A DNA stretch of 64,000 nucleotides from Alphaproteobacteria bacterium (lineage in GTDB: Bacteria > Pseudomonadota > Alphaproteobacteria > MPNO01), in assembly GCA_965202905.1 (NCBI GenBank), contig OZ241868.1, positions 516,879-580,878 of the forward strand, read 5' to 3'. Below, piece after piece: positions 599 through 38,743 of this stretch (its first letter is position 1; each line of letters starts with the position of its first letter). The translations under genes were made by a program, and so were the position numbers. The notes below the pieces were generated by a model. The model did no database searches and was not told where the DNA came from. It was given only the letters and a program-made list of their open reading frames with translations.

Positions 599-1482
<884 letters not shown>

Positions 1483-1508
1483 AGTCCTTTTCGGAAAGCA
1501 ATCGAGAC

Positions 1509-3584: not shown

Positions 3585-3622
3585 CGGGCGCTAGTCCGGA
3601 ACAGGGTTCAGGAAAGAGATCG

Positions 3623-4813
<1,191 letters not shown>

Positions 4814-4841
4814 GCGGAAGCGGCCGGCCGGAGGGCAGACA

Positions 4842-5146
<305 letters not shown>

Positions 5147-5150
<4 letters not shown>

Positions 5151-5899: not shown

Positions 5900-6509
5900 C
5901 GTCGTGACGATCGACAACGAGCAGGCCGGCTCGATCGAGCTTGCCGATCCGATCTTCGCTGCGCCCGTGCGCCGCGATATTCTGGCCCGGATGGTTAACT
6001 GGCAGCGCGCCAGGCGCCGCGCCGGCAACCACAAAACCAAGGGGGTGAGCGAGGTCAGCGGCACCACCGCCAAGCCCTACAAGCAGAAGGGCACCGGCCG
6101 GGCCCGTCACGGCAGCCGGCGCTCGCCGCAGTTTCGCGGCGGCGCGGTGATCTTCGGCCCCAAACTGCGGGATCACGCCCACAAGCTGCCCAAGAAGGTG
6201 CGCCGGATGGCGCTTCGGTCGGCCCTGTCGAGCAAGGCCGAAGACGGCGCGCTGATCGTGCTCGATGCGGCCAGGCTGGAGGACTACAAGACTGCTGCGC
6301 TGGCCAGGCGTCTGGACGCGCTCGGCTGGGGCCGCGTCCTGATCATCGACGGCCCGGAGATCGACGGGAACTTCGCCCGCGCGGCGGCCAACATTCCTAA
6401 TGTCGACGTACTGCCGCAGCAGGGCGCGAACGTTTACGACATCCTGCGCTGCGGCAAGCTGGTTCTGACCCGCGAGGCGGTCAAGCATCTGGAGGAACGG
6501 CTGGTATGA
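5889..6509 (+). CDS. rplD: 50S ribosomal protein L4
   Basis: 206 aa from internal ATG of the listed ORF; [14 protein letters not shown]...[12 protein letters not shown]. Confidence 0.9.
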
Positions 6510-6823
6510 GGCGGCCCGGGAAAGTGTGGGTCTCCGACAACCGGGCGTGCGAACTGATCCGCGCGCCGGTGGTCACCGAGAAATCGACGCTGGGCAACGA
6601 GCACAACCAAGTCACCTTCCGGGTGCCGGTCGATGCCACCAAGCCCGAGATCCGGGCCGCAGTCGAAAAGCTGTTCGACGTCAAGGTCAAGGCGGTCAAT
6701 ACCATCCGCCAGAAGGGCAAGATCAAACGGTTCCGCGGCCGTATCGGCAGGCGACCGGACACCAAGAAGGCGATCGTTTCCCTGGCCGAGGGGTCTTCGA
6801 TCGATGTGACGACGGGGATCTAG
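6506..6823 (+). CDS. rplW: 50S ribosomal protein L23
   Basis: [13 protein letters not shown]...[24 protein letters not shown]. Confidence 0.9.
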
Positions 6824-6826
6824 GCC

Positions 6827-7657
6827 ATGGCGCTGAAGCAATACAAACCCGTCACGTCCTCCCAGCGCGGCTTGGTGTTGGTCGACCGGTCCGAGCTGTG
6901 GAAGGGTAAGCCCGTCAAGGCGCTGACCGAGGGCCTGTCGAAAAAGGGCGGGCGTAACAACGCCGGGCGCATCACCGCGCGGCGGCGCGGCGGCGGCCAC
7001 AAGCGGCTCTACCGCAAGATTGACTTCAAGCGGCGCAAGTTCGACGTGCCCGCCCGGGTCGAGCGGCTGGAATACGACCCCAACCGGTCCGCCTTCATCG
7101 CGCTCCTGAAATACGAAGACGGCGAGCAGAGCTACATCATCGCCCCGCAACGGCTCAAGATCGGCGATACGGTTATCGCCGGCGCCTCGGTTGACGTGAA
7201 GCCGGGCAACGCGATGCCGATGGAGAACATCCCTGTCGGTACGATCGTCCACAATATCGAGATGCGGCCGGGCAAGGGTGCCCAGATCGCCCGCGCCGCC
7301 GGCACATATGCCCAGCTTGTCGGCAAGGACTCCGGCTATGCCCAGCTCCGGCTGACCTCGGGCGAGTCCCGCATGGTGCCGGCAGCCTGCATCGCGACCG
7401 TCGGCGCGGTCTCGAACTCCGATAACCAGAACGTCAAGAAGGCCAAGGCCGGACGCAACCGCTGGCTCGGCCATCGCCCCAAGGTGCGTGGCGTGGCCAT
7501 GAACCCGGTCGATCATCCCCACGGCGGCGGCGAGGGCCGGACATCGGGCGGCCGCCATCCGGTCACGCCCTGGGGCGTGCCTACCAAGGGCAAGCGCACA
7601 CGCGGCAAGAAGAAGAGTGATTCGCTCATCATGCGCCGGCGGCACAGGAACAGGTAG
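6827..7657 (+). CDS. rplB: 50S ribosomal protein L2
   Basis: 276 aa; [15 protein letters not shown] motifs. Confidence 0.95.
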
Positions 7658-7667
7658 GGGGCGCGAG

Positions 7668-7946
7668 ATGTCTCGTTCGGTCTGGAAAGGTCCCTTCGTG
7701 GACGGCTACCTCCTCAAGAAGGCGGACAAGGTTCGCGAGTCCGGGCGCAAGGAGATCATCCGCACATGGTCGCGGCGCTCGACCATCCTGCCGCAGTTCG
7801 TCGGCCTGACCTTCGGCGTCCACAACGGCCATAAGTTCCTGCCCGTCCTGGTGACCGAGGACATGGTCGGCCACAAATTCGGTGAGTTCTCCGGCACGCG
7901 GATTTATCAGGGCCACGCCGCGGACAAGCGCTCGAGGCGCGGCTGA
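7668..7946 (+). CDS. rpsS: 30S ribosomal protein S19
   Basis: 92 aa, [18 protein letters not shown]; listed ORF trimmed. Confidence 0.93.
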
Positions 7947-7947
7947 G

Positions 7948-8337
7948 ATGGGCAAGCCGTCCAACCCGCCGCGGCTTGCGGAGAACGAGGCCAAGGCTTA
8001 TGTGCATGCGATCCGCACCAGCCCGCGCAAGCTCAACCTCGTCGCCCAGTCGATCCGCGGGCTCGACGCGGAGCGGGCGCTCAACGCGCTGTCGTTCTCG
8101 CGCCGGCGCATCGCCCAGGACGTCAAGAAGGTCCTGCAATCCGCGATCGCCAACGCCGAGAACAACCACATGCTTGATGTCGACCGCCTGATGGTCGCCG
8201 AGGCCACCGTCGGGCGGACGTTCGTGATCAAACGCTTTCGGGCGCGCGCACGCGGCCGGATCGGACGGCTGGAAAAGCCGTTCAGCAACCTGACGGTGAT
8301 CGTGCGCGAGCGCGAAGAGGTAGAGGAAGACGTCTGA
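7948..8337 (+). CDS. rplV: 50S ribosomal protein L22
   Basis: 129 aa, [30 protein letters not shown]; trimmed. Confidence 0.92.
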
Positions 8338-9014
8338 TGGGTCAGAAGGTCAATCCGGTCGGCCTGCGCGTTGGCATCAACCGGACCTGGGATTCCAGGT
8401 GGTACGCCGACGGTCACTACGCCGATTTGCTGCACGAGGATTTGGCGCTGCGCGACTACTTGTTCAGGCGCCTGTCGCAGGCCAGCGTCAGCCGCATCGT
8501 GATCGAGCGGCCGGCGAAGAAGGCCCGCGTGACCATCCATTCGGCCCGTCCGGGCGTGGTGATCGGCAAGAAGGGCGCTGACATCGAGAAGCTGCGCGCC
8601 GACGTTTCGCGGATGACCAGCTCCGATGTCCACATGAACATCGTGGAGATCCGCAAGCCCGAGATCGACGCCAAGCTCGTGGCCGAGAATATCGCCCAGC
8701 AGCTCGAGCGCCGGGTGGCGTTCCGCCGGGCGATGAAGCGGGCCGTCCAGTCGGCGATGCGGCTGGGCGCCGAGGGCATCCGGATCAACTGCGGCGGCCG
8801 GCTCGGCGGAGCGGAAATCGCCCGGGTCGAATGGTATCGCGAGGGCCGGGTGCCGCTGCACACGCTGCGCGCCGATGTCGACTACGGCGTGGCGACCGCG
8901 CGCACCACATACGGCACCTGCGGCGTCAAGGTCTGGGTGTTCAAGGGCGAGATCATGGCCCATGACCCGATGGCCCTGGACAAGCGCAGCCAGGAACAGC
9001 GGGTCGGGCGCTAA
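8337..9014 (+). CDS. rpsC: 30S ribosomal protein S3
   Basis: [24 protein letters not shown]; KH domain motifs. Confidence 0.95.
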
Positions 9015-9046
9015 GGCCGACGGGCGGGACGAACCGGTAGAGAGCG

Positions 9047-9466
9047 ATGCTGAGCCCCAAGAGAACCAAATACCGCAAGGCCCACAAGGGCCGGATCCAC
9101 GGCCACGCCAAGGCCGGCACATCGCTCAATTTCGGCTCCTACGGGTTGAAGGCCGTCGAGCCCGGCCGGGTGACCGCACGCCAGATCGAGGCCTCGCGGC
9201 GGGCGATAACCCGTGCGATGAAGCGCGCCGGCCGGGTGTGGATCCGGATCTTCCCCGACGTTCCGGTCTCGCAGAAGCCGGCCGAGGTGCGCCAGGGCAA
9301 GGGCAAGGGCTCGCCAGAATACTGGGCCTGCCGGGTGAAGCCGGGCCGGATCATGTTCGAGGTCGACGGTGTTCCGGTTGAGGTCGCGCAAGACGCGCTG
9401 GAGCTGGCCGCGGCCAAGCTGCCGATCCAGGTCCGCTTCGTCCGCCGCCTCGCGAGCGGAGGCTAG
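9047..9466 (+). CDS. rplP: 50S ribosomal protein L16
   Basis: [16 protein letters not shown]. Confidence 0.95.
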
Positions 9467-9470
9467 TCGG

Positions 9471-9674
9471 ATGAGGGTGGCCGACATCAGGCAGAAGACG
9501 CCGGACGAGCTCGCCGAGCAGCTCCGCGGGCTGCGCCGGGAGGCGCTCAATCTGCGCTTCCAGCGCGCCAGCGGGCAGCTTGAGGCGACATCGCGGGTGC
9601 GCGAGATCCGCCGTGACATCGCGCGGATACAGACCGTCATCAACGAGCGCGGCAAAGCCGGGGCGGAGGGCTAG
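9471..9674 (+). CDS. rpmC: 50S ribosomal protein L29
   Basis: 67 aa, MRVADIRQKTPDELAEQLRGLRREALNLRFQ; trimmed. Confidence 0.9.
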   Translation: MRVADIRQKTPDELAEQLRGLRREALNLRFQRASGQLEATSRVREIRRDIARIQTVINERGKAGAEG

Positions 9675-9677
9675 ACG

Positions 9678-9941
9678 ATGCCGAAACGCGTGCTTCAAGG
9701 GATCGTCGTCAGCGACAAGATGGACAAGACCATTGTTGTGCGCGTCGAGCGCCGGGTGCGGCATCCGGTCTACAAGAAGATCATCCGGCGTTCACGCAAA
9801 TTCACCGCGCACGACCCGGAGAACATGTGCAAGGTCGGCGATACGGTACGCATCTGCGAATGCCGCCCGCTGTCGAAGTCAAAGCGCTGGGAGGTCATCG
9901 CCGACGGGCCTGTCGCCGCGACCGCGCCGGCGGCAAGCTGA
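9678..9941 (+). CDS. rpsQ: 30S ribosomal protein S17
   Basis: [26 protein letters not shown]. Confidence 0.93.
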
Positions 9942-9953
9942 GGGCGGATCGAG

Positions 9954-10322
9954 ATGATACAGGCCGAAAGCAACCTTGACGTCGCCGACAATTCCGGCGC
10001 AAGACGGGTGCAATGCATCCGCGTGCTGGGCGGCGCGCGTCGGCGCTGGGCCTCGGTGGGCGATGTGATCGTGGTCTCGGTCAAGGAGGCGATCCCACGC
10101 GGCCGGGTCAAGAAGGGCGACATCCACAAGGCCGTCGTGGTGCGCACCGCCAAGGAGATCCGCCGGACCGACGGGACCGCGATCCGCTTCGACCGCAACG
10201 CGGCCGTGCTGATCAACGCTGCCGGCGAGCCGATCGGCACCCGCATCTTCGGGCCGGTCACCCGCGAGCTGCGCGCCAAGCAGTACATGAAGATCATCTC
10301 GCTCGCACCGGAGGTGCTCTGA
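9954..10322 (+). CDS. rplN: 50S ribosomal protein L14
   Basis: [27 protein letters not shown]. Confidence 0.95.
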
Positions 10323-10323
10323 C

Positions 10324-10665
10324 ATGGGACAGCCGAGACGCTCCGGCGGCCGGATCAAGAAAATCCGCAAGGGCGACACGGTCATCGTTTTGACCGGACG
10401 CGACAAGGGCAAGCGCGGTAATGTGCTCAAGGTCATGCCCAAGGACGAGAAGCTGATTGTCCAGGGCGTCAACATGGTCAAGCGCCACACCAGACAGACC
10501 CAGACCCAGGCCGGCGGCATCGTCGAGAAAGAGGCGACGATCCACGTTTCCAACGTCGCGCTGGCCGATCCCTCATCGGACAAGGCGACCAGGGTCGGAT
10601 TCAGGACGCTTGAGGACTCGCGCAAGGTTCGCTTCGCCAAGGCGTCCGGCGAAGTGATCGACTGA
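10324..10665 (+). CDS. rplX: 50S ribosomal protein L24
   Basis: [23 protein letters not shown] motif. Confidence 0.9.
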
Positions 10666-14232: not shown

Positions 14233-15572
<1,340 letters not shown>

Positions 15573-15576
<4 letters not shown>

Positions 15577-16235
15577 ATCTGATCCTTCTGGGCCCCCCCG
15601 GCGCGGGCAAGGGCACGCAGGCGCAACGCCTGCAGGACGCGCATGGTCTGATGCAGCTCTCGACCGGCGACATGCTGCGCGCGGCGGTCGCCTCGGGCAG
15701 CGAACTCGGCAAGACGGCCCAGGCAATCATGGCGGCGGGCAAGCTGGTCCCCGACGACGTGATGGTCGCGATGATCCAACACCGGGTCGACGAGCCGGGT
15801 TGCGCCGGTGGGTTCGTCCTGGACGGCTTTCCCCGCACCGTCGCCCAGGCGGAGGCGCTTGACGACATGCTCGCGCGTAAGCGCAGGCGGCTGGATGCGG
15901 CGGTCGAGATGACGGTCGACGATGCCGCCTTGGTCCGGCGGATCGCCGGACGGTTCTCCTGCGTCCATTGTGGGGCGGGCTATCACGACGAGTTTCGGCC
16001 CACCGAGGTAGCCGACGTCTGCGACCGGTGCGGGCGGACCGAGTTCAAGCGCCGGGCGGACGACAACGAGGAAACCGTCCGCACCCGGCTTGCGGCCTAT
16101 CACGAGCAGACGGCGCCGCTTCTGCCCTACTACCGCGCGAAGGGCACGCTGCGGAGCGTCGACGGCATGGCGGAGATCGATGAAGTCACCCGGCAGATTG
16201 GGGCGCTGGTCAGCGCGCTGGAGACGGTTGACTAG
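15573..16235 (+). CDS. adk: adenylate kinase (with Cys4 zinc lid)
   Basis: MNLILLGPPGAGKGTQAQ P-loop; lid CVHCG...CDRCG; ATGA overlap with secY; listed ORF trimmed. Confidence 0.93.
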
Positions 16236-16255
16236 CCGATGCGAGCCCCTATAAT
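16228..16255 (+). promoter_or_regulatory. sigma70-like promoter of the alpha operon (TTGACT-N16-TATAAT)
   Basis: near-consensus hexamers straddling the adk stop, about 70 nt upstream of rpsM; coordinates +/-1. Confidence 0.45.
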
Positions 16256-16323
16256 CCGCCGACCCCGACTGGGCCCCAGCACTCCGAAATTCCGCCCCTG
16301 GACTGTCAGCAGGAGGACGCGCC

Positions 16324-16686
16324 GTGGCGCGCATAGCCGGCGTTAATTTGCCGAACAAGCCGATCGAGATCGCGCTGACCTATATCTTCGGGATCGGCCG
16401 CACCAGCGGACGCGAGATCTGCCGGAAGGCCGGCGTGACCTTGATCACGAGGGCCAACGACCTGGGCGACGACGAGCTGGTCCGCATCCGCGACATCATC
16501 GACCGGGACTACAAGATCGAAGGCGATCTGCGGCGCGAGACCGCAATGAACATCAAGCGGCTGATGGACCTGGGCTGCTACCGCGGCCTCAGGCACCGGC
16601 GCAACCTGCCGGTGCGGGGCCAGCGCACCCATACGAATGCGCGCACCCGCAAGGGCCGCGCGCGGCCGATCGCCGGCAAGAAGTAG
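16324..16686 (+). CDS. rpsM: 30S ribosomal protein S13
   Basis: [25 protein letters not shown]. Confidence 0.95.
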
Positions 16687-16713
16687 CGCGCGCCGCCGCA
16701 AATAGGGAACAAG

Positions 16714-17106
16714 ATGGCACGAGCAACCACCACGCGGGTCCGTCGTCGCGAGCGCAAGAATATCACCTCGGGCGTTGCCCATGTGAACGCCTCGTTCAAC
16801 AACACCAAGATCACCATCACCGACGCCCAGGGCAACGCGATCTCCTGGTCCTCCTCCGGCTCGCAAGGGTTCAAGGGCTCACGGAAATCGACGCCCTATG
16901 CCGCCCAGATCGCCGCGGAGGACGCCGGCCGCAAGGCGCAGGAGCACGGGGTGAAGACCCTGGAGGTTCGGGTCAAGGGGCCCGGATCGGGGCGCGAGTC
17001 TGCGCTGCGCGCCCTGCAGGCGGTCGGTTTCAGCATCACTTCCATACGCGACGTCACGCCGATACCCCATAACGGCTGCCGTCCGCGCAAGCGTCGCCGG
17101 GTCTGA
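16714..17106 (+). CDS. rpsK: 30S ribosomal protein S11
   Basis: [18 protein letters not shown]... Confidence 0.95.
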
Positions 17107-17170
17107 CTTCGGCCGGGCCCCGGCCGCGGAGACGCCGCCGACCGAAACTCGTCGTCGAGGATCGCAACAG

Positions 17171-18193
17171 ATGTCGATAGTTCAAAAGAACTGGCAGGAA
17201 CTGATCAAGCCGAACAAGCTCGAGATCCTGCCGGGTACCGATTCGAGCCGGTTTGCAACCATCGTCGCCGAACCGCTCGAGCGCGGTTTCGGTGTCACGC
17301 TCGGCAACGCCCTGCGCCGGGTGCTGCTGTCCTCGCTGCAGGGCGCGGCCTGCACCGCCATCCAGATCGACGGCGTCTTGCATGAGTTCTCGTCCATCCC
17401 CGGGATCCGCGAGGACGTGACCGACATCGTGCTCAACATCAAGTCGCTGGCGCTGCGCATGCACGGTGACGGGCCCAAGCGGATGTTCCTCAACGGCGCC
17501 GGACCCGGCGAGATCACCGCCGGGATGATCGAAGCCGGACACGACATCGAGATCGTCGAGCCGGACATCGTGATCTGCACGCTGGACGAGGGCGCGAAGA
17601 TCTCCATGGAGCTCACCGTGGACAGCGGCAAGGGCTACGTCCCGGCGACACAGAACCGCGCCGAAGATGCGCCGATCGGCCTGGTGCCGATCGATGCGGT
17701 GTTCAGCCCGGTCCGCAAGGTCGCCTTCCGCGTCGAGAATACCCGCGTCGGCCAGGTGACCGATTACGACAAGCTGTCGCTCGATATCGAGACAAACGGG
17801 GTGATCTTGCCCGAGGACGCGGTGGCGTTGGCCGCACGTATCCTTCAGGACCAGCTCCAGCTTTTCATCAACTTCGAAGAGCTCTCGACCCGTTCGGAGG
17901 ACATCCAGCCGAGCGAGCCGACGCTCAACAAGAACCTGCTGCGCAAAGTCGATGAGCTCGAGCTGTCGGTCCGTTCGGCGAACTGCCTGAAGAACGACAA
18001 CATCATCTACATCGGCGATCTGGTGCGGCAATCTGAGCAGGATATGCTGCGCACGCCCAATTTCGGGCGCAAGTCGCTCAATGAGATCAAGGAAGTGCTG
18101 GCCACGATGGGGCTGTCGCTCGGTATGGAGATCACCAGTTGGCCGCCCGAGAACATCGAGGATCTGGCCAGGCGTCTGGACGAGCCCTACTAG
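17171..18193 (+). CDS. rpoA: DNA-directed RNA polymerase subunit alpha
   Basis: 340 aa; N-terminal domain plus CTD ([22 protein letters not shown]). Confidence 0.96.
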
Positions 18194-18721: not shown

Positions 18722-20134
<1,413 letters not shown>

Positions 20135-20137
20135 GCG

Positions 20138-21439
20138 GTGGCCGCGGACCCGAGCCTCGGCCTGTTCGATGTCCAGACGCCGCGGCCGCTCGCCGATCGC
20201 CTGCGCCCCACCGGCCTTGCCGAGGTTCTCGGCCAGGATCATCTGCTCGGCTCCGACGGCCCGATCGGGCGGATGCTGGCGGAGAAAAAGCTCGTATCGA
20301 TGATCCTCTGGGGGCCGCCGGGCTCGGGAAAGACCACCGTCGCGCGGCTGCTGGCAAGTGCGACCGCGCTGCACTTCGAGCCGCTATCGGCGGTGTTTTC
20401 CGGCGTCGCGGACCTGCGCCGCGTCTTCGAGCAGGCGCGCGGCCGCCGCGCGGCGGGGCAGGGCACGCTCCTGTTCGTCGATGAGATCCACCGGTTCAAC
20501 CGCGCCCAGCAGGACGGATTCCTGCCATATGTCGAAGACGGCACGGTCACGCTGATTGGTGCGACCACGGAGAACCCCTCCTTCGAGCTCAACGGGGCCT
20601 TGCTCTCGCGCTGTCAGGTCCTCGTGCTCGCGCGGCTCGACACGGCCGCGCTGGAAGCGCTGCTCTGCCGCGCCGAGGCGGAGACGGGCCGCGCCTTGCC
20701 GGTCGAGCCCGAGGCTCGCGTCGCCTTGTGCGCGATGGCCGACGGTGATGGACGCTTCGTGCTCAACCTTGCCGAGACGGTCTTCGGCCAGCCCGCGGAT
20801 CAGGCCCTTGACGTCGCCGCGCTGTCCGCCCTGGTCCAGCGCCGCGCGCCGCTCTACGACAAGGCGCAGGACGGCCACTACAACCTGATCAGCGCGCTGC
20901 ACAAGTCGATCCGTGGCTCCGATGTCGATGCGTCGCTCTACTGGTTCGCCCGCATGCTCGAAGGTGGCGAGGATCCGCGCTACATCGCCCGTCGGCTGAC
21001 CCGTCTCGCGGCAGAGGATATCGGCCTTGCCGACCCCAACGCGCTGGTTCAGACGCTCGCCGGCTGGCAGACCTACGAGCGCCTGGGCTCGCCCGAGGGC
21101 GAGTTGGCGATTGCCCAGTCGGTGATCTATCTCGCCGCCGCGCCCAAATCCAACGCGCTCTACCGGGCGTTCGGGGCGGCGGGCGAGGCGGCCCGGCGCA
21201 CCGGCTCCCTGATGCCGCCGGCCCATATTCTCAACGCGCCCACCGCGCTGATGAAGGATCTCGGCTACGGCGCCGGCTACACCTACGACCACGACACGCC
21301 CGAGGGGTTCTCCGGCGACAACTATTTCCCCGACGGGATGTCGCCCGAAACCTATTTCGAGCCGACCGGGCGCGGCCAGGAGGCCGAGGTCGCGAAGCGG
21401 CTGAAGGCCTGGGCGGAACGCCGCAAAGAGCCGCGATGA
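20138..21439 (+). CDS. rarA: replication-associated recombination protein A (AAA+ ATPase)
   Basis: GPPGSGKTT Walker A, DEIHRFNRAQQD Walker B/sensor; 433 aa. Confidence 0.88.
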   Translation: MAADPSLGLFDVQTPRPLADRLRPTGLAEVLGQDHLLGSDGPIGRMLAEKKLVSMILWGPPGSGKTTVARLLASATALHFEPLSAVFSGVADLRRVFEQARGRRAAGQGTLLFVDEIHRFNRAQQDGFLPYVEDGTVTLIGATTENPSFELNGALLSRCQVLVLARLDTAALEALLCRAEAETGRALPVEPEARVALCAMADGDGRFVLNLAETVFGQPADQALDVAALSALVQRRAPLYDKAQDGHYNLISALHKSIRGSDVDASLYWFARMLEGGEDPRYIARRLTRLAAEDIGLADPNALVQTLAGWQTYERLGSPEGELAIAQSVIYLAAAPKSNALYRAFGAAGEAARRTGSLMPPAHILNAPTALMKDLGYGAGYTYDHDTPEGFSGDNYFPDGMSPETYFEPTGRGQEAEVAKRLKAWAERRKEPR

Positions 21440-21816
21440 AACTCCTGGCCGCAATTGCGCTCGGTGGCGCTGTCGGCGCGCTTGCCCGCCACCTCGTGAC
21501 CCAACAGATGGGACACTGGCTGGGCCTCGGCTTTCCGTGGGGGACGTTCACGGTCAACATCATGGGCTCGTTCGTGCTCGGCGCGCTGGCCGAGATGCTC
21601 GCCCTGGCGGCGGACGAAGCGCCCATGCTGCGGGCGGTCCTGATCGTTGGCGTTCTCGGGAGCTTCACCACATTCTCGACCTTCTCGCTCGATGCGGTGC
21701 TGCTGTCCCAGCGCGGCCGGCCTGACCTTGCCGCGGTTTACGTCGCGGCCTCGGTCGTCCTGGCGGTTCTCGGGCTGATCGCCGGGCTGCGGCTTGCGCG
21801 CGCGGTGCTGGCATGA
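21436..21816 (+). CDS. crcB: fluoride ion channel CrcB/FluC
   Basis: 126 aa, 4 TM; GTFTVNIMGSFVLG and GSFTTFSTFSLD motifs; ATGA overlap with rarA. Confidence 0.85.
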   Translation: MKLLAAIALGGAVGALARHLVTQQMGHWLGLGFPWGTFTVNIMGSFVLGALAEMLALAADEAPMLRAVLIVGVLGSFTTFSTFSLDAVLLSQRGRPDLAAVYVAASVVLAVLGLIAGLRLARAVLA

Positions 21817-22802
21817 GCCGGGCGCGCACGATCGCCGTCACGGCCGCGGACGCCGAGATCCGGCTGGACCGCTGGTTCAAGCGACACTACCCGGCGCTGG
21901 GTCACGGGCGGCTGGAAAAGCTGCTGCGCACCGGCCAGGTGCGCCTGGACGGCGGGCGGGCGAAGGCCTCCGCGCGCCTTGCCCCCGGCCAGCGGATCCG
22001 GCTCTCACCGGGCATCCTGGAGCCGCCGGCGCGCGGCGAACGGCTGGAGACGGCGGACCGGGAGTTCATCCGCAGCCTTGTGCTCTACCGCGACGATCGC
22101 ATCATCGCCATCGACAAGCCGGCCGGCCTTGCCGTCCAGGGCGGCACCAAGGTCGCAATTTCGGTCGACGCCTTGCTGGATGGACTCCGCTTCGGGTCCG
22201 TGGAACGCCCCCGCCTGGTCCACCGGCTGGACAAGGCGACCAGCGGCGTCCTGGTGCTCGCCCGCAGCCGCAAGGCCGCCTCGGCCCTGGTCGACGCCTT
22301 CCGCGACGGCGGGATCGTCAAGGAATACTGGGCGCTCGTCGCCGGGGCGCCGCGGCCCGAGCGGGGCAGGATCGATCTGGCGCTCGCCAAGAAACCCGTC
22401 GATCCCGCGGGACGGGAGCAGGTCACCGCCGATGAGCACGACGGCAAACCGGCGCGCACTGAATATGCGGTTGTCGAGTCGGCCGGGCAGGCAGTGTCGT
22501 GGCTGTTGCTGATCCCTCGAACGGGAAGGACCCATCAGCTCCGCGTGCATTGCCGGGCGCTGGGCGCGCCGATCCTCGGCGACCGGAAATACGGGGGCTT
22601 CGCCGCCGCCGAGGACGGCCGGCTGGCGGTGGAGCGACTCATGCTGCACGCCAGGCGCCTGCGCATTCCTCGCGAAGCCGGCGGGCCGCTCGACGTGACC
22701 GCGCCGCTCGACACGGCGATGGCTGCGCAATGGTCGTTCTACGGCTTCGCCGGGGACTCCGGCCGCGCTATAGAATCGTTTACGGCTGACAGGCCGAGAT
22801 AA
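21813..22802 (+). CDS. RluA-family 23S rRNA pseudouridine synthase (RluC/D-like) with S4 domain
   Basis: HRLDKATSGVLVLA catalytic Asp motif, GRTHQLRVH, N-terminal S4-like region. Confidence 0.82.
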   Translation: MSRARTIAVTAADAEIRLDRWFKRHYPALGHGRLEKLLRTGQVRLDGGRAKASARLAPGQRIRLSPGILEPPARGERLETADREFIRSLVLYRDDRIIAIDKPAGLAVQGGTKVAISVDALLDGLRFGSVERPRLVHRLDKATSGVLVLARSRKAASALVDAFRDGGIVKEYWALVAGAPRPERGRIDLALAKKPVDPAGREQVTADEHDGKPARTEYAVVESAGQAVSWLLLIPRTGRTHQLRVHCRALGAPILGDRKYGGFAAAEDGRLAVERLMLHARRLRIPREAGGPLDVTAPLDTAMAAQWSFYGFAGDSGRAIESFTADRPR

Positions 22803-25365: not shown

Positions 25366-25452
25366 GCGGTCGTGGCGGAATTGGTAGACGCGCAGCGTTG
25401 AGGTCGCTGTGGGAGAAATCCCGTGGAAGTTCGAGTCTTCTCGACCGCACCA
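25366..25452 (+). tRNA. tRNA-Leu (anticodon GAG)
   Basis: GCGGTCGTGGCGGAATTGGTAGACGCG...TCGACCGCACCA; anticodon stem CAGCG/CGCTG, loop TTGAGGT; long variable arm; CCA encoded. Confidence 0.85.
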
Positions 25453-25550: not shown

Positions 25551-26934
25551 ATGCGAGGAATGGCGGGTCACGACCGCAGCGCGTCGGCCGCCGACCCGAT
25601 CGACATGATCCCCGACATCGCGATCTCGGTCGGCGATGCGATCGAGGCCGCTCAGCCCACGCGCGTGGTCGGGCTGACCTCGGCGCTGCACTACGCCGAG
25701 CTGGCGGACCTGCTCGAGCAGCTCAACCCGGACCAGCGCGCGCGTCTGGTCGAGATCCTGGCGCCGGGCTTCGCGCCGGAGATCCTGCCCGAGCTCGACG
25801 AGGCGGTGCGTGAAGAGGTGGCCGGGCATCTCGGCGCCCAGCTCCTGGCCGGCGCCATTGTCCGCCTGGAGTCCGATGATGCGCTGGTGCTGCTCTCCTC
25901 GCTGAAAGAGGCCCGGCAGCGTCAGGTGATGCAGGCGATCCCGATGGCCCTGCGCGACTCGCTCGAGCAGGGACTCGCCTATCCTGAGGACAGCGCCGGG
26001 CGGCTGATGCAGCGCGACCTGGTCGCGGTGCCCATGTTCTGGACGGTCGGCGAGACCATCGACTACCTGCGCCAGGCGGACAGCCTGCCCAGCGACTTCT
26101 ACGACATCTTCGTCGTCGATCCCGGTCACCGGCCGGTCGGCGCCGTGTCGCTAGCCATGTGCTGCGCGCCCGCCGCCCGGCGCCGATGCAGGACTTGGCG
26201 CGCCGTGAGGTCGTCGCGGTCCCGGTCATCATGGACCAGGAGGAGGTCGCCTTCATCTTCGCCCGGAAGGATCTGGTCTCGGCGCCGGTCGTCGATGACG
26301 GCGGCCGGCTGATTGGCGTGATCACCGTCGATGATGTCGTCGACGTTATCCATGAGGAGGCCGAGGAAGTCTTGATGCGCCTGGGCGGCGTCTCCGAGAC
26401 CGATATCTACCAGGCGGTGCTCGATACCGGCAAGGCGCGGTTCTCCTGGCTGTTCGTCAACCTTGTGACGACCGTTCTGGCCTCCATCGTCATCTGGCTC
26501 TTCCAGGGGACGATCGAGCAGATCGTCGTGCTTGCCGTCCTGATGCCGATCGCGGCCTCGATGGGCGGCAATGCCGGCGCCCAGTCGCTAACCGTCGCGG
26601 TCCGCGCGATTGCGATGCGTGACCTGACGCCGGCCAACGCCTTCAGGATGCTGTCCAAGGAGTGCCTGGTGGGACTGTTCAACGGGCTGTGCTTCGCCGC
26701 GATCATTGGCGCGATCGCCTGGGTCTGGTCAGGCGAGTCCTCAATCGGCGCGGTCATGGCGGCGGCCATGACGGTCACGATGTTCATCGCCGGGCTCGCC
26801 GGCGCCGCCATCCCGTTCGGGCTGTCCCGGACAGGGATCGATCCGGCGATCGCCTCGGGGTGCTGCTGACCACGGTCACCGACGTGATCGCGTTCCTCGC
26901 CTTCCTCGGCCTCGCCGCCTGGTTTCTGATCTGA
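25551..26934 (+). pseudogene. mgtE: Mg2+ transporter MgtE, disrupted by two frameshifts
   Basis: MgtE N-domain, CBS pair and TM domain read across three frames (25551.., 26159.., 26662..); shifts near 26152 and 26858. Confidence 0.7.
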
Positions 26935-29874: not shown

Positions 29875-30195
29875 TCAGCCCGGTACGCCGACCATGATGT
29901 CGTCGCCGTCGATCTTGATCTCGTAGGTTTTCAGGTCCTCGGTCACAGGCGGGGTCATCGCCTTGCCCGATTTGATGTCGAAGCACCCGCCATGCAGCGG
30001 GCACTCGATCAACGCGCCTTCGATGTAGCCATCCGCCAGCGAGGCATAGGCGTGGGTGCAGATGTCGTCGGTCGCGTAGAACTCGCCCTCGAGGTTGTAG
30101 ATCGCGATTTCTTTCTTGCCGATCACGACCTGCAAGGCTTCGCCGTCGTCGAGATCGCCCGTCTTTGCGACCGCGTGGAACTCGATATCGCTCAT
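29875..30195 (-). CDS. Rieske [2Fe-2S] ferredoxin
   Basis: 106 aa from MSDIEFHAV; CTHAYASL...CPLHGGCF; GGAG RBS; listed ORF trimmed. Confidence 0.85.
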   Translation of the reverse strand: MSDIEFHAVAKTGDLDDGEALQVVIGKKEIAIYNLEGEFYATDDICTHAYASLADGYIEGALIECPLHGGCFDIKSGKAMTPPVTEDLKTYEIKIDGDDIMVGVPG

Positions 30196-30427
30196 TATGC
30201 GCTGTGTCTCCGTGTTGTCCGATCCCGCGCGGAAACCGGCCTTTGGATCCGGGCCGAACCGCGCAATCCGGGCAACGCGCCCGCTTGGCTCGGTCGGGCG
30301 GAGTGTACACAGCCCCCCGGAACGTGCCAACCGGTATCGCCCGCGATGGCCAGCGCGCCGGGCCGCCGGTATAGTCCGCCGGATCGTCGAATGCGCAACG
30401 TCGAACGCGCAACAGGGAACCGACAGC

Positions 30428-31669
30428 TTGCCCGAGAACGATGCCCCGCTGGTCTGGCCGCAGGAGGGCGTGAGCCGCGTCCCCTACCGGGTCTATTCCG
30501 AGCCCGGGATCTACGAAGCTGAACAGCGCAAAATCTTTCGCGGCGATGTCTGGCATTTCCTGTTGATGGACCAGGAGATCCCCGAGCCCGGCGACTACCG
30601 CACCGTCGAGGTCGGCGAGACTCCGGTGATCGTGCTGCGCGATGAGACCGGCGCGATCAACGCGATGGTCAACCGCTGCGCCCATCGCGGCAACATGGTG
30701 TGCATAAACAAGGTCGGCCGCGCCGATGGCCGCTTGACTTGCGTCTACCACAACTGGACCTACGACCTGAAGGGACGGCTGGAGGCGGTCGCCTTTCAGC
30801 ACGGCATCGCGCGCCGCGGCGGCATGCCCGAGGATTTCACGATCGCCGATCACGCGCTGGAACGGCTGCGCGTTGACAGCTATTGCGGGCTGGTGTTCGG
30901 AAGCTTCTCGCCATCCGTTGCGCCACTGGCCGACTATCTGGGCGCGGAGATGCGCGCCAACATCGACCGCGTGCTCGGCCGCGAGATGGTGCTGCTGGGC
31001 GCCTACAGCCAGTTCATGCCCAACAACTGGAAGCTTTACATGGAGAACGTGCGGGACTCCTATCACGCGAGCCTGCTGCACGTCTTCTTCACCACCTTCC
31101 GGTTGAACCGGCTGTCGATGGACGGCGGCATTAAGCTCAGCCCGCGCGGCTGGCACCATATCAGCTATTCGATCGCCGCGACCGACCGCGAGGAGGCGCA
31201 GTACGATCCGGACAAGCTGCGCGCGGTCGAAGACGGCTATCGCCTGGCCGATCCGCGGGTGATCGGCGGCTGGCCGGAGTTTGCGTGCGGCACGACGCTG
31301 GCGATCCAGTCGATCTTTCCGAACTTCATAATCCAGCAGACCCGGAACTCGATCGCGCTGCGGGTGTGCATGCCAAAGGGAGCGACCGGCTGCGAACTAT
31401 CCTGGCGCATCCTGGGCGCCGGCGAGGACACCGAAGATCAACGCGCCGCGCGAATCCACCAGTCCAACCTGATCGGGCCCGGCGGGCTGATCTCGATGGA
31501 GGACGGGGTCGTCGGCGGCTGGGTCCAGCGGGGCGCCAAGGCGGACCCGGACCGCGTCTCGCTTCTGGAGATGGGCGGGCGCGATGTCGCGCCCAGCCCG
31601 GGATCGCGTGCGACCGAGGTTTCGGTGCGCGGGTTCTGGAACGGCTTTCGCGATCTGATGGGTGTCTGA
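30428..31669 (+). CDS. Rieske non-heme-iron ring-hydroxylating oxygenase, alpha subunit
   Basis: CAHRGNMVC...CVYHNWTY Rieske motif; DSYHASLLH iron site; TTG start after AGGGA RBS; longer listed ORF overlaps divergent gene. Confidence 0.75.
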   Translation: MPENDAPLVWPQEGVSRVPYRVYSEPGIYEAEQRKIFRGDVWHFLLMDQEIPEPGDYRTVEVGETPVIVLRDETGAINAMVNRCAHRGNMVCINKVGRADGRLTCVYHNWTYDLKGRLEAVAFQHGIARRGGMPEDFTIADHALERLRVDSYCGLVFGSFSPSVAPLADYLGAEMRANIDRVLGREMVLLGAYSQFMPNNWKLYMENVRDSYHASLLHVFFTTFRLNRLSMDGGIKLSPRGWHHISYSIAATDREEAQYDPDKLRAVEDGYRLADPRVIGGWPEFACGTTLAIQSIFPNFIIQQTRNSIALRVCMPKGATGCELSWRILGAGEDTEDQRAARIHQSNLIGPGGLISMEDGVVGGWVQRGAKADPDRVSLLEMGGRDVAPSPGSRATEVSVRGFWNGFRDLMGV

Positions 31670-34839: not shown

Positions 34840-35313
34840 ATGCACTCCAGGGACGCGGAACGGGCGATCGAGGCGCTGATCCACGACTATGCCCATGCGA
34901 TCGACGACGGCCGGCTGGAAGAATGGCCGGACTTCTTCACCGAGGATTGCCTCTACCGCGTGATCTCCAGGGAGAGCCACGAGCAGGGCCAGCCCGTCGG
35001 GATCATGTCCTGCGAGGGGATCGGCATGATGCGCGACCGCATCCTGGCGCTTCGCGTGGCCAACATCTATGAGCCGCACGTCTATCGACACCTGATCAGC
35101 GCCATCCGCATCGAAGACGGCGTCGCGGAACCCTATCGGGTGCGGACCGGATTTGCCGTCATCCGCACCATGCAAAGCGGCGAAATCAGTGTCTTTCTGT
35201 CGGGCAAGTATCTGGATTCCATCGTTTTCGAGGCCGGGATGGCGAAGTTCCGAGAGCGCATCGTGGTCTGCGACTCCGGCCGTATCGACACGCTGATCGT
35301 CATACCGCCGTGA
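34840..35313 (+). CDS. ring-hydroxylating dioxygenase beta subunit (NTF2-like)
   Basis: 157 aa; DYAHAIDDGRLEEWPDFFTEDCLYRV typical of RHO small subunits. Confidence 0.75.
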   Translation: MHSRDAERAIEALIHDYAHAIDDGRLEEWPDFFTEDCLYRVISRESHEQGQPVGIMSCEGIGMMRDRILALRVANIYEPHVYRHLISAIRIEDGVAEPYRVRTGFAVIRTMQSGEISVFLSGKYLDSIVFEAGMAKFRERIVVCDSGRIDTLIVIPP

Positions 35314-35499
35314 CCGGCCCAAAGGTCCCTATGACGCCGGATTCGGCGGGTTCGGCAGGTTCACCATCCAGGCCCTGAACCATACGACCAAAACGTGTGA
35401 TGCCGATTTTACTCTGGATTCTCTAGAGGATGCTAAGGTATGATGGTCAAGAAACTTCGATAATGTCGTAAGGCCATGCGACGGAGGCCACTCTGACTA

Positions 35500-35706
35500 A
35501 TGGCAGACACGAGACGAACTTCCAGAAAGCCTGCTGGCAGACGCCCTGGGGCAAACCGGCCCGTCCCAATTTCGGCGTTTCACGGCAAAGACGAGATCAT
35601 GCCTGGCTCAGAGCGCCTGCAAACGGGCCTGCAACGTCAATCACCGGAGGGAATGGAATTGTATCTATATCGAATGTCCCCGTTACTGTCCCTCGTGGAG
35701 TTTTAA
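35500..35706 (+). CDS. hypothetical small basic protein (68 aa), translationally coupled to the helicase
   Basis: GGAGG 12 nt upstream; stop 4 nt before helicase ATG; R/K-rich N-terminus; low-GC codon usage like the helicase. Confidence 0.35.
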   Translation: MADTRRTSRKPAGRRPGANRPVPISAFHGKDEIMPGSERLQTGLQRQSPEGMELYLYRMSPLLSLVEF

Positions 35707-35709
35707 ATA

Positions 35710-38304
35710 ATGTCGGCTCACATGTTGGACGTTTTCGAGGCCGAGCTGGCAACCCAGAAGCTCACCGTCATCGAACGGCTTGAGCTTCCAGCGCGCGAAG
35801 AGAGAACGACGCCGGTTCCCGACGCATATCGGATCGGACCCGTTGGCAAAAGGCTGCTCTCGGACGGCACCTTGAAGGGAAACCTGTGGTTGCATCAGGC
35901 GCTCGCCCTCCAGGAATTTGCGACCGGCAACAACGTGGTGCTTTCGACGGGAACCGCATCCGGCAAATCCTTGGTGTTCCAGGCGGCCGCCATCAAGACG
36001 CTTCAGAATGACGACGAAGCAAAGGTTCTGGTGTTCTATCCCCTGAAGGCACTGGCGGCGGACCAGCGTGAGAGTTGGCGCCGCGCTCTCGAATTGGCGG
36101 GGATGCCGGAAGACTGGATTGGGATTGTCACGGGCGACGTGTCGAGGCCGGAACGCAAGACGACCCTCGAAAAAGCCCGGATCATTGTCGCGACGCCGGA
36201 TGTCTGTCATGCTTGGCTCATGCGGGGACTGTCCAGTAGTGCTTCCAAGCGCTTTCTCGCAAGCCTCGATCTCCTTATTATCGATGAAGCGCATACTCTC
36301 GAGGCTGTGTTCGGTAGCAATGTCGCCTTTCTGTTCCGGCGGCTCCAGGCTGCCGCACGGATATGTCGAGCGAAAAAGCGGGATGATCGCAGCTTCTCGG
36401 TCATCGCTGCGAGCGCCACGATTGCGAATCCGGGCGAACACCTCCACACGCTGACAGGCCTCGACTTCGCTGTCATCGACGGGAATCAGGACGGATCGCC
36501 TCAGCATGCCCGTTCGCTGCTGCACCTGGCCTGCGGCCCGGATGAGACACAGAGCATAATTTCGGACCTTCAAAGAGAGCTCATCGAGCATTCCGATTCG
36601 GGCAGCTTCATCACCTTCGTTGACTCGCGACAAGGTGTCGAACGGCTTGCTGCGCAGACCGAGCACGATCTCGTAAAGCCGTACCGGAGCGGCTACGAGG
36701 CCGAAGACCGCGCTGAGATCGAGGAGGCGCTGCGGTCCGGCAGGCTGCGCGGTGTCGTCGCAACATCAGCCCTCGAGCTTGGTATCGATATTCGTCACTT
36801 CGCAGTTGGTCTGAACCTCGAACTACCAACATCGCGGAAAGCATTCCGGCAGCGGTTGGGGCGCGTTGGCAGGTCCACGCCTGGCGCATTTGCTGTCGTG
36901 GCGCAGCCCAACGCCTTCCGACGCTACGGTTCATCACTTGAGGATTACTACCGGGGTTCAGTCGAGCCATCCCATCTTTACCTCGACAACCGCTTCGTCC
37001 ATTTCGCTCACGCGAAATGTCTCGCGGATGAACTCGATATGTTGGGAGTGAAAGGGCGATCAGTTCCGCAGGACGATATCGACTGGCCTTCCGGTTTCGT
37101 GGATGTCTACGAGTTCGCAAGAGTCGGCGGAACCAGGGCGCGTCCGAAGGAGTTCGATCATATTGCCGGTATCGGTGGCGACAATCCTCATTATAACTAT
37201 CCGCTACGCAACATAGGCGAGGAGAGCTTCCAGATCTCTCAGGGCCAGTTGCAGCCAATTGGTAAGCTGAATTTGCAGCAGGCCATTCGTGAAGCCTATC
37301 CCGGCGCTATCTACATGCACATGGGACGCCGCTGGCGAGTCCACGAATGGCGGAGTACAGCTCTGGAGCGCACGATCAAAGTGTCGTCGTGGAAGGCGCC
37401 GATCAACACGCGACCGCTGATCAGGACATTCGTCAACCTGAGTGTCGAGCGCGATGGAGTGGTCGCCAGCAATTTCTGCAAGGGGCCGCACGGGTTCCTG
37501 GCAGAGTGCCAACTCCAGATCACGGAGCGAGTCGAAGGATATCAAGAGCGCGGCGACCGAAAGCTCTATAGCGATCTGCGTCAGAATAATCCGCACATGT
37601 CTCCCAAGACCCGCGATTTCCGAACGACAGGCGTCGTACTCAAGATCGAGACCCAATGGATGGGAGAGGATAGCAAAAGACGACTCGCGGACGCGTTGCG
37701 CGATCTCATGGTTCGCGAGCACAGCATTTCACCGCAAGATGTCGGCGGTGCAGCCACCAATATCGCGATGGTCGTGGATGGCTCGCGCCATTCCGTGAGC
37801 GACGCGATCGTCATCTATGATGCGACCTATGGCAGCCTTCGACTGACGGAACCCGTATTCAACGAACTCGGCACCCTGATCGCCCGGCTCGAGCGGTCCA
37901 GCGAGCTGTCGCCGAGTGACGATGCGTTGGTGCCGGAGCAAATCGCATCGGGGTTACACGACTGGTTCGAGGAGCTCGGATCCGCAGATCCGGATGATTT
38001 TTCGAGCCTCGTGGATGGTAGAGGCGAGACAACGACAGATGGGCTGTTGTGGGTACTGGCGCCTGGAAGCATCGTAGCGAAGCGCGATAGCCAAGGCGTG
38101 CTACGCGACATCGAGATCGTGGCTCCGGAGATCGTGTCTCTCGACGGTCCACCGAAGCTTTTCTACCGCTACAGGGTTGATGGACCTGGAACCGCGATGG
38201 TGTCGGCGGATGCTATCAAACCGATCGGTGACGAATATCGGCACCAGAAATGGAATCCCCAGACGTCCGAGTACGTCGAGAGCGGCGAGGGTGATCTTCG
38301 CTGA
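35710..38304 (+). CDS. SF2 DEAD/DEAH-box helicase of the COG1205 / MrfA(YprA)-like family with divergent C-terminal domain lacking Cys4
   Basis: 864 aa; motif I TGTASGKSL, II IIDEAHTLE, III SAT, VI QRLGRVGR; post-helicase region resembles DUF1998 but has only 3 Cys; acidic C-terminus; gene visibly lower in GC. Confidence 0.8.
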   Translation: MSAHMLDVFEAELATQKLTVIERLELPAREERTTPVPDAYRIGPVGKRLLSDGTLKGNLWLHQALALQEFATGNNVVLSTGTASGKSLVFQAAAIKTLQNDDEAKVLVFYPLKALAADQRESWRRALELAGMPEDWIGIVTGDVSRPERKTTLEKARIIVATPDVCHAWLMRGLSSSASKRFLASLDLLIIDEAHTLEAVFGSNVAFLFRRLQAAARICRAKKRDDRSFSVIAASATIANPGEHLHTLTGLDFAVIDGNQDGSPQHARSLLHLACGPDETQSIISDLQRELIEHSDSGSFITFVDSRQGVERLAAQTEHDLVKPYRSGYEAEDRAEIEEALRSGRLRGVVATSALELGIDIRHFAVGLNLELPTSRKAFRQRLGRVGRSTPGAFAVVAQPNAFRRYGSSLEDYYRGSVEPSHLYLDNRFVHFAHAKCLADELDMLGVKGRSVPQDDIDWPSGFVDVYEFARVGGTRARPKEFDHIAGIGGDNPHYNYPLRNIGEESFQISQGQLQPIGKLNLQQAIREAYPGAIYMHMGRRWRVHEWRSTALERTIKVSSWKAPINTRPLIRTFVNLSVERDGVVASNFCKGPHGFLAECQLQITERVEGYQERGDRKLYSDLRQNNPHMSPKTRDFRTTGVVLKIETQWMGEDSKRRLADALRDLMVREHSISPQDVGGAATNIAMVVDGSRHSVSDAIVIYDATYGSLRLTEPVFNELGTLIARLERSSELSPSDDALVPEQIASGLHDWFEELGSADPDDFSSLVDGRGETTTDGLLWVLAPGSIVAKRDSQGVLRDIEIVAPEIVSLDGPPKLFYRYRVDGPGTAMVSADAIKPIGDEYRHQKWNPQTSEYVESGEGDLR

Positions 38305-38743
38305 TGATCAAGAACGGCGAAAACAGTAGGTCAGACTCCCACATCCGATGAGCGCCAGCAGCCGGACGGCGGTGATAGCCTTGGGACATTGGGCTCCGCT
38401 GTCATCGGGCGTGCGCCCGAGCGGGCCAACTCGTCCGTATCGAGAAACCGGGTGATGTGGTTCCTCGGGTGCTTGGAGATGCCGAGACGGGGATTGCTGT
38501 CGCGCAAGCCCCATTCCTCGGCCCGGAACATCATCGAGCGCATCGGGGAGATGAGTGCATGTCCGGGCAACGCGCGAGACGCCACCGCGGCGATCTGCGC
38601 GACCCGTTGATACAGGCGGCGCGCGAGGCCTGCGCGATCATCGGCGATGCCGTCGCCCGGCGCTCGTTGCAGCCCGGCGCCGCCACGATCGATCCGAAGC
38701 TTGCGACAGCGGCCGGGCGCTGTGCCGTCGAATCCGACCGCGG

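Follow-up and report, generated by a model that had tools for sequence, protein, structure and literature searches.

A compositionally foreign, solitary YprA/MrfA-family helicase without the zinc knuckle and with a predicted Tudor-like tail between two aromatic-catabolism operons of an alphaproteobacterium

We analyzed a stretch of 64,000 nucleotides (nt) from Alphaproteobacteria bacterium (GTDB lineage MPNO01; assembly GCA_965202905.1, contig OZ241868.1, positions 516,879 to 580,878), hereafter called the window, and in it a gene encoding a superfamily 2 (SF2) helicase of 864 amino acids (aa) that belongs to the YprA/MrfA family. We propose, with a probability of about 0.6, that a segment of ~3.1 kb (35314 to ~38400) is horizontally acquired single-gene cargo, consisting of a zinc-less, Tudor-tailed YprA/MrfA helicase between two aromatic-catabolism operons, beside the stump of an integrase, with a role in conflict as its favored function. 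An earlier note on this DNA had described a low-GC segment with one solitary helicase of the COG1205/YprA-MrfA lineage, possibly acquired horizontally, that interrupts a catabolic cluster. The present analysis agreed with this description, and we found neither a complete Cys4 DUF1998 zinc site, nor a housekeeping helicase at this locus in all relatives, nor a G+C (GC) content resembling that of the flanks.

The motor of the helicase was well preserved. The motifs that the earlier note had read from the sequence were all present, namely motif I (TGTASGKSL, aa 80-88), motif II (DEAH, 192-195), motif III (SAT, 235-237), and motif VI (QRLGRVGR, 381-388), and their invariance across 75 homologues showed that the motor is intact and under purifying selection. 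Pfam identified the DEAD (aa 62-239, 2.5e-26) and Helicase_C (aa 286-389, 3.3e-15) domains only; even with the threshold relaxed to E ≤ 1, the C-terminal 470 residues had no match, MZB/DUF1998 (PF09369) included. The best NCBIfam match was TIGR03817 (YprA/SftH-type DEAH helicase; 1.4e-69, aa 25-651), with a score of 235 bits, far under the equivalog cut-off of 874 bits. Among proteins of the PDB, the best match by sequence was chain 6znp_A, the YprA/MrfA protein of B. subtilis (phmmer, 1.9e-42, aa 20-546), and the next one (8.5e-17) was 25 orders of magnitude weaker. The PADLOC models SngC, BrxHI, DrmA, DruE, and DpdJ/F matched the motor core only. The protein is clearly a helicase of the COG1205/YprA-MrfA lineage that descends from the YprA/MrfA family. 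By analogy with the biochemistry of MrfA and SftH (PMC7797055), it would be a DNA-dependent ATPase with 3'-to-5' helicase activity.

The C-terminal half was examined using an AlphaFold2 model built on 75 homologues, with a mean predicted local distance difference test value (pLDDT) of 86.3 and a predicted template modeling score (pTM) of 0.80. MrfA was its best fold match in the PDB (Foldseek), and the model superposed on MrfA (6znp/6znq) along the whole MrfA chain (E 2e-43, target-normalized template modeling score 0.76-0.79). In this predicted structure, aa 420-755 correspond to the canonical canopy of winged-helix (WH), oligonucleotide-binding (OB), connector (CON), and MZB domains, from which the zinc knuckle alone appears to be deleted. 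Since the model superposes on the whole length of MrfA, the C-terminal half is less exotic than first thought, and of the atypical C-terminal domain described in the earlier note only ~aa 756-864 deserve that name. The first half of the MZB domain was conserved, with LRDL..SPQDVGG corresponding to the canonical H..EH....P....D..D.GG and IVIYDATYGSLRLTE to the canonical FIYDGxPGGxGLT. In place of the knuckle CxCxxGCPxCxxSPKCG (CxCxxGCPxC..C) the protein had the 9-residue coil SSELSPSDD between helices 720-733 and 743-754, and its alignment with nine Cys4-bearing YprA relatives, taken from representative genomes, contained a gap of ~16 residues exactly at the Cys cluster. The Pfam MZB model found nothing on the window protein but matched six generic relatives, used as positive controls, at 1e-14 to 1e-23. 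The absence of the DUF1998 Cys4 site noted from the sequence was thus upheld. The claim that the last ~300 residues contain no cysteine was correct for the last 264 residues only, as C590 and C600 are present and C600 is invariant in the clade. Other invariant positions in the C-terminal part across the 75 homologues were TRDFRTTG, YDAxxGSLRLTE, W752, G796, and Y819.

The new parts of the protein are limited to ~aa 756-864. The canopy is followed by a flexible linker, which varies in length and sequence across the clade. Its pLDDT fell below 50 around the same place (aa 771-776) whether the full protein or the C-terminus alone was modeled. After the linker, a small barrel of seven strands (aa ~779-857) is predicted to have a Tudor-like fold; no Pfam family was found for this tail domain. 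The last 30 residues of the window protein were mildly acidic (6 D/E versus 4 K/R), and most homologues end D/E-rich, so that the acidic tail of the earlier note is better developed in the relatives than in the window protein itself. A profile of the last 149 residues was compared with 1.84 billion representative proteins and gave 141 matches. Nearly all of them lie C-terminally in proteins of ~843-874 aa or in shorter, apparent fragments; the exceptions were a few long repetitive proteins that matched weakly and in several stretches.

The helicase is not one of a kind: it belongs to a conserved clade with more than 120 full-length homologues (52-82% identity, all ~865 aa) in a large protein database, none of which has a Pfam domain beyond the motor. 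Additionally, we collected 77 YprA-type proteins from one-genome-per-species representative contigs; the labels L001, L002, and so on denote the helicase-bearing loci that were compared with the window. The Cys4 cluster without the tail was found in 58 of the 77 proteins, the tail without Cys4 in 11, both together in none, and neither in eight, which were truncated or fragmented proteins (L014, L015, L021, and L022) and distant cousins (L016, L017, L019, and L020). Profile scores clustered in three distinct ranges (≥911 bits, 445-473 bits, and ≤322 bits). Loss of Cys4 and gain of the tail together mark a rare clade, whose carriers are scattered over Latescibacterota, Oceanicaulis, Sphingomonas, Paracoccus, Pseudomonas, Dehalococcoidia, Bryobacterales, and Entotheonella. 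Our literature searches yielded no account of a clade that is both zinc-less and Tudor-tailed, which is absence of evidence and not proof. The clade is apparently undescribed and would be a second, independent loss of Cys4 in the YprA family, paired one-to-one with the gain of a Tudor-like domain.

The four distant cousins are ~880 aa long with ~30% identity and have neither Cys4 nor Pfam MZB and WHD_HRQ1 domains. When aligned, they showed a homologous beta-rich C-terminus that lies below the profile threshold and ends in an N/D-x-x-T/S-G/M-E-like sequence. These proteins may represent the deep base of the clade.

In the window, the GC content of the helicase gene was 0.588, compared with 0.664 for the whole window and 0.65-0.70 for both flanks, and its third-position GC was 0.68, compared with 0.82-0.91 for every neighboring gene. 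The gene is compositionally foreign in the window. It is preceded by a GGAG ribosome-binding site at 35697-35700, 9 nt 5' of the start. Both flanks are catabolic: the left flank contains genes encoding ferredoxin reductase, Rieske alpha subunit, FAA hydrolase, GST, bicupin dioxygenase, and a SnoaL_4/beta-subunit-like protein, and the right flank is a lower meta-cleavage operon with DmpH/G/F-like, hydratase, and aldehyde dehydrogenase genes. The upstream spacer resembled no other locus of the family by tblastn or blastn, and for both spacers around the helicase nothing similar was found at the other family loci. No RNA elements were detected in the spacers at Rfam gathering thresholds. A simple scan revealed no plus-strand sigma-70-like promoter 5' of the helicase, and its promoter and terminator counts were within two standard deviations of the shuffled expectation.

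Three syntenic metagenome contigs contained a PdxA-family dehydrogenase gene and no helicase between the beta-subunit gene and dmpH, a distance of ~1 kb. These contigs share with the window the ferredoxin reductase, FAA hydrolase, Rieske alpha and beta subunits, and the whole lower operon, and lack the GST and bicupin genes. No PdxA-family dehydrogenase gene was found anywhere in the window, where the slot is filled by the spacer, the helicase gene, and the integrase stump. Additionally, the Rieske alpha gene (30116-31669) and the beta-subunit-like gene (34840-35313) of the window are separated by ~3.2 kb containing the FAA hydrolase, GST, and bicupin genes; in at least 20 related metagenome contigs, the alpha and beta subunit genes are adjacent. 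The catabolic cluster in the window is rearranged and may be incomplete.

The flanks of the helicase gene had been described as non-coding or degraded DNA. On the downstream side this DNA proved to be a frameshifted remnant that is probably the stump of a tyrosine integrase, with a host-like GC of 0.69, convergent with the helicase gene and directly 3' of the dmpH-like gene. In six-frame translation it reads ..MRSMMFRAEEWGLRDSNPRLGISKHPRNHITRFLDTDELARSGA.. and, past the frameshift, PKAITAVRLLALIGCG. The remnant matched three annotated tyrosine recombinase or site-specific integrase genes and one unannotated stretch by tblastn (35-47% identity, E ~1e-4). Because Pfam does not recognize the remnant, we hold the assignment at moderate confidence. 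The segment is at most the decayed remnant of an integrase-bounded island, the delivering element having decayed. The features of the segment are summarized in Table 1.

Table 1. Features of the helicase-bearing segment and predicted domains of the helicase, in positions of the window
Feature	Position	Strand	Basis
Upstream spacer, 396 nt, GC 0.54 (lowest of the region)	35314..35709		Sequence, six-frame translation
Helicase gene, intact, 864 aa, ATG start; YprA/MrfA-family SF2 helicase of the zinc-less, Tudor-tailed clade	35710..38304	+	Open reading frame list, Pfam/PADLOC/NCBIfam, PDB search, homologues, AlphaFold2
N-terminal strand region, RecA1, and RecA2, aa ~1-420 (borders approximate)	35710..36969	+	Pfam, motifs, invariant columns, secondary structure
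Predicted canopy: helical winged-helix-like region, aa ~421-497, then beta-rich OB and connector (CON), aa ~498-650 (borders approximate)	36970..37659	+	TIGR03817, phmmer, Foldseek, DSSP
MZB-like domain without zinc site, aa ~651-755	37660..37974	+	Alignment, Pfam, Cys positions
Flexible linker, aa ~756-778	37975..38043	+	pLDDT, variable alignment columns
Clade-specific, predicted Tudor/chromo/SH3-like beta-barrel, aa ~779-857, and short charged tail, aa 858-864	38044..38301	+	Predicted structure
Probable tyrosine integrase remnant, N-terminal (core-binding) part, frameshifted and truncated	~38338..38612	-	tblastn, six-frame translation

No conserved neighbor of the helicase gene was found in an all-against-all comparison of open reading frames (ORFs) within 7 kb of the helicase in 17 loci. 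The DNA similarity of the window to the two closest loci (~81-83%) begins and ends at the helicase ORF. Shared synteny with the closest locus, L001, in which the helicase gene also follows a ring-hydroxylating beta-subunit gene, was considered and rejected: the helicases are 82% identical, whereas the adjacent beta subunits are 27% identical and the DNA similarity ends at the ORF. In 17 of 20 loci, the GC content of the helicase gene lay below that of its flanks, with a mean difference of 6.7 points and a maximum of 17 points.

Many of these neighborhoods were mobile or contained genes of the defense type. In L002, the helicase gene is located in an integrative and conjugative element (ICE), ~3 kb from a coupling-protein gene and a few kb from F-type type IV secretion system (T4SS) genes, and is adjoined by an M78 peptidase gene, an E2/E1/JAB gene, and an nSTAND-S8 pair. 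Elsewhere the helicase gene was found beside a Type ISP restriction enzyme and IS66, at the edge of a prophage adjoining a serine recombinase, in an island with a P4-type integrase and SNF2 and PLD genes, near two TIR genes and ISL3/IS66, and among transposases with an SspB gene. It also lies in a P4-type-integrase island in Pseudomonas sp. GM48 (L007) and beside a Mutator transposase in Paracoccus. Two related genomes, L089 (helicase at 8001-10619) and L090 (8001-10610), carry the gene in one slot, between ccm genes and pgm-pdxA-surA-mfd; L089 additionally has an MmeI-type restriction enzyme, two HicB genes, and several small ORFs beside the helicase, and the slot behaves like a hotspot for defense genes.

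Two of these loci contained further genes of interest. In L002, the region 15058-17319 is one gene of 753 aa with Prok-E2, ThiF (E1), and JAB domains, and 19451-22598 contains an nSTAND3-AAA gene followed by an S8 peptidase gene; the E2/E1/JAB gene and the nSTAND3/S8 pair look like defense cargo. In L007, the region 5' of the helicase gene (71-7947) holds two very large ORFs, of 1173 and 1452 aa, that lack a Pfam match, and a DUF3427 fragment lies 3' of the helicase gene.

We also compared 142 neighboring ORFs from 20 family loci with 124 from 20 loci of Cys4-bearing relatives, listing the 25 most-matched families. Among the Pfam families listed, transposase, ResIII, and Uma2 led at the family loci, and prephenate dehydratase and response regulators led at the controls. 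The neighbors matched 138 PADLOC models at the family loci versus 74 at the controls. Among the matches listed, those of the family loci included strong Type IIG, Type I/ISP, SspB, and DinG matches, and those of the controls were filled by GajB models on two UvrD-type proteins.

Elsewhere in the window, the mgtE gene is apparently split into two overlapping plus-strand ORFs in different frames (25551-26312 and 26159-26869), just 3' of tRNA-Leu (25366-25452). The first ORF encodes MgtE_N alone and the second the CBS and MgtE transporter domains, which suggests a frameshift, either in a pseudogene or as a sequencing error.

Because the helicase gene is solitary, foreign in most of its hosts, and usually found in integrase or transposase islands together with restriction, Ssp, TIR, and toxin-antitoxin genes, we favor a role in conflict, in which the helicase would act on its own against phages or mobile DNA, and give it somewhat less than an even chance. 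This preference, like the "defense or repair" label of the earlier note, is drawn from the gene neighborhood. The helicase would load on single-stranded DNA, translocate 3' to 5' with ATP, and unwind the duplex, as judged from MrfA and SftH (PMC7797055), and the canopy would close over the loading strand. The tethered Tudor-like barrel could serve in docking or regulation and recruit the motor to a partner protein or target through a protein contact, by analogy with PcrA/UvrD, in which the C-terminal Tudor domain docks on RNA polymerase (PMC5397179, PMC8318588). The acidic tail may act as a mask over a surface that binds DNA or a partner. A more specific proposal, which we consider doubtful, is that the clade is a single-protein, nuclease-free immune helicase. 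Its barrel would sense or dock on an invader cue (a phage protein, a stalled RNA polymerase, or replication intermediates coated with single-stranded DNA-binding protein (SSB) are candidates), thereby lifting the masking by the acidic tail, and the motor alone would strip proteins from, or unwind, replication or recombination intermediates of phages or plasmids. Under this specific proposal, loss of the zinc knuckle would follow from the transfer of its structural or partner-binding role to the new C-terminal module.

Several observations weigh against horizontally acquired conflict cargo. No nuclease, toxin, or other effector domain was detected in the helicase using Pfam and PADLOC, and to our knowledge every known single-gene helicase defense carries an effector domain. 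By sequence, the protein is closest to members of the repair-type branch (MrfA, SftH-like TIGR03817, and MrfA-MrfB fusions) and not to those of DISARM or Druantia. Members of the clade were absent from 72,556 PLSDB plasmids, 50,697 INPHARED phages, and 2.9 million IMG/VR viral contigs, which yielded distant relatives only (a 35%-identical Thermomicrobium match ending at aa 714 and four viral-contig matches of 29-32% identity); in BFVD, the matches covered the motor core only. The neighbors of the helicase in L090 are purely housekeeping genes, and in L083 (8001-13275) the helicase gene lies directly 5' of genes for a Lactamase_B_2 (metallo-beta-lactamase-fold) protein and an ATP-dependent DNA ligase. 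We take this position to be that of the Lhr-core helicase in the "ligase-associated DNA damage response" cluster, and L083 is a possible case of helicase replacement. At the window itself, no meaningful att sites or flanking or terminal repeats bounding an element were found, and no tRNA target adjoins the segment, the nearest tRNA genes being ~10 and 24 kb away. The flank proteins of the syntenic contigs are only 60-80% identical to those of the window, so these contigs show an alternative occupant of the slot and not a strain-level empty site. The comparison of family and control neighborhoods is suggestive and comes without a statistic.

Some of this evidence would fit an accessory DNA-repair helicase of the "YprA-only" kind, which would act at damaged DNA as MrfA does at mitomycin C adducts and pass its substrate to nucleases and ligases of the host, the islands then reflecting the ordinary horizontal spread of accessory repair genes. 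We regard such a function as possible, at well below even odds. It agrees with the nearest relatives, among which the MrfA-MrfB-type fusions have C-terminal exonuclease domains, with the ligase context of L083, and with mfd at ~4 kb in both L089 and L090. The model is collinear with MrfA, and the protein lacks the BrxA-like insert and extra zinc modules of the defense branch (Bell et al. 2025, 10.1101/2025.09.15.676423). Moreover, Tudor domains are known from the repair helicases PcrA/UvrD, which they couple to RNA polymerase (PMC5397179, PMC8318588). Set against a repair function are the sporadic distribution over phyla, the foreign composition in 17 of 20 loci, and the lack of an adjoining or fused MrfB-like partner, and most neighborhoods are integrase or transposase islands with restriction-type genes, whereas repair genes adjoin the helicase in just one of ~13 annotated contexts.

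The probability left after the conflict and repair roles falls to a function for the mobile element or some other role. A helicase that serves its mobile element, in replication of an ICE or island, processing of transfer DNA, or countering of host defenses, and that persists in the window as a leftover of a decayed element, seems improbable. The ICE context of L002 speaks for it, as do the integrase or recombinase genes within a few kb in L007, L085, and L087, the integrase remnant in the window, and the SSB and HU genes near the helicase in L084. However, the plasmid, phage, and viral-contig collections contained no clade member, linkage to transfer, replication, or integration genes is not conserved, and the chromosomal slot of L089 and L090 is common to two related genomes, one of them without any element genes. 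In the window, the ORF and motifs of the helicase are intact although the integrase is dead. The earlier note had also considered a two-gene module formed by the helicase and a small upstream ORF of 68 aa (35500-35706), which starts with ATG and ends 4 nt 5' of the helicase start. We judged this ORF to be spurious and a two-gene module to be highly improbable: it has no Pfam match, its best tblastn match across the fetched loci had E=0.76, the spacer DNA is unlike that of other loci, and the closest loci share DNA within the helicase ORF only.

The YprA/MrfA family is a current focus in bacterial immunity (DISARM, Druantia, Dpd, and ARMADA) and in the repair of antibiotic damage, and Cys4 is regarded as its hallmark. 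If the role in defense is true, the clade would amount to a minimal system of one helicase, in which the action of a YprA motor by itself could be modeled cleanly; if the role in repair is true, it would exemplify an accessory repair helicase that is exchanged horizontally and possibly has a docking domain of the RNA-polymerase type. In either role, the clade provides a natural experiment on the purpose of the MZB zinc site, and its cultured carriers, Pseudomonas sp. GM48 and Paracoccus spongiarum, make it experimentally testable. For the present genome, the segment marks a rearranged catabolic cluster, with foreign DNA where related clusters hold a PdxA-family dehydrogenase gene.

The fullest survey of YprA proteins distinguished a repair branch ("YprA only" without conserved context, and MrfAB) from a defense branch (DISARM, Dpd, Druantia, ARMADA, BRIGADE, and TALON), reported that the Cys4 cluster characterizes the whole family and is lost in Dpd alone, and made no mention of Tudor or SH3 domains (Bell et al. 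2025, 10.1101/2025.09.15.676423). The window helicase shares its SF2 motifs and the domain order N-terminal strand-RecA1-RecA2-WH-OB-CON-MZB with MrfA/YprA of B. subtilis (6ZNP, 6ZNQ, and 6ZNS) and SftH of M. smegmatis, and the "YprA-only" members likewise have no conserved genomic partner (Bell et al. 2025). Its identity was 21% to MrfA (Foldseek alignment) and 27-33% to generic bacterial relatives. Unlike MrfA, it has no Cys4 knuckle, has gained the linker, the predicted Tudor-like barrel, and the charged tail, and is island-borne with a foreign composition. In MrfAB, the partner is an MrfB-type (RNase H-fold/DEDD) exonuclease, which is neither adjoining nor fused here; the fused relatives show RNase_H_2 or DNA_pol_A_exo1.

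DrmA of DISARM, DruE of Druantia, and the ARMADA, BRIGADE, and TALON helicases belong to the same family and are also found in defense islands and mobile elements. These helicases are encoded in conserved multi-gene operons and have BrxA-like, MarR-like, and multiple zinc-module insertions, or a split canopy (DrmB) (Bell et al. 2025), whereas the window helicase is solitary, compact (864 aa), and free of zinc modules. The PADLOC models DrmA and DruE matched its motor core at 1e-11 to 1e-13. None of the partner genes of DISARM, Druantia, or ARMADA (DrmB/DrmC, DruH or other Dru, BrxHII-like and PglX-like) was a conserved neighbor in the 17 loci, and the window neighbors are catabolic.

The Dpd helicases, the sole YprA lineage reported to lack Cys4, are a precedent for a dispensable zinc site (Bell et al. 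2025). They differ in having an N-terminal MukF-like wHTH, helical insertions in the canopy, a C-terminal ALBA-like domain, and a 7-deazaguanine cluster, none of which is found with the window helicase. Weak NCBIfam scores, confined to the motor core, were obtained for DpdF (66 versus a cut-off of 550 bits) and DpdJ (29 versus 800), and no dpd genes were found near the window helicase. The Lhr-core model TIGR04121 gave 97 bits against a cut-off of 850, and ligase and metallo-beta-lactamase-fold neighbors occur at L083 only. A small Tudor-type barrel on a flexible linker at the C-terminus of a bacterial DNA helicase is also known from PcrA/UvrD (PMC5397179, PMC8318588). Taken together, the window helicase is outside MrfAB, DISARM, Druantia, ARMADA, Dpd, and the ligase-associated Lhr-core group. 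Since it lacks the Cys4 signature of the family, we file it as a divergent variant of YprA/MrfA rather than as a canonical member.

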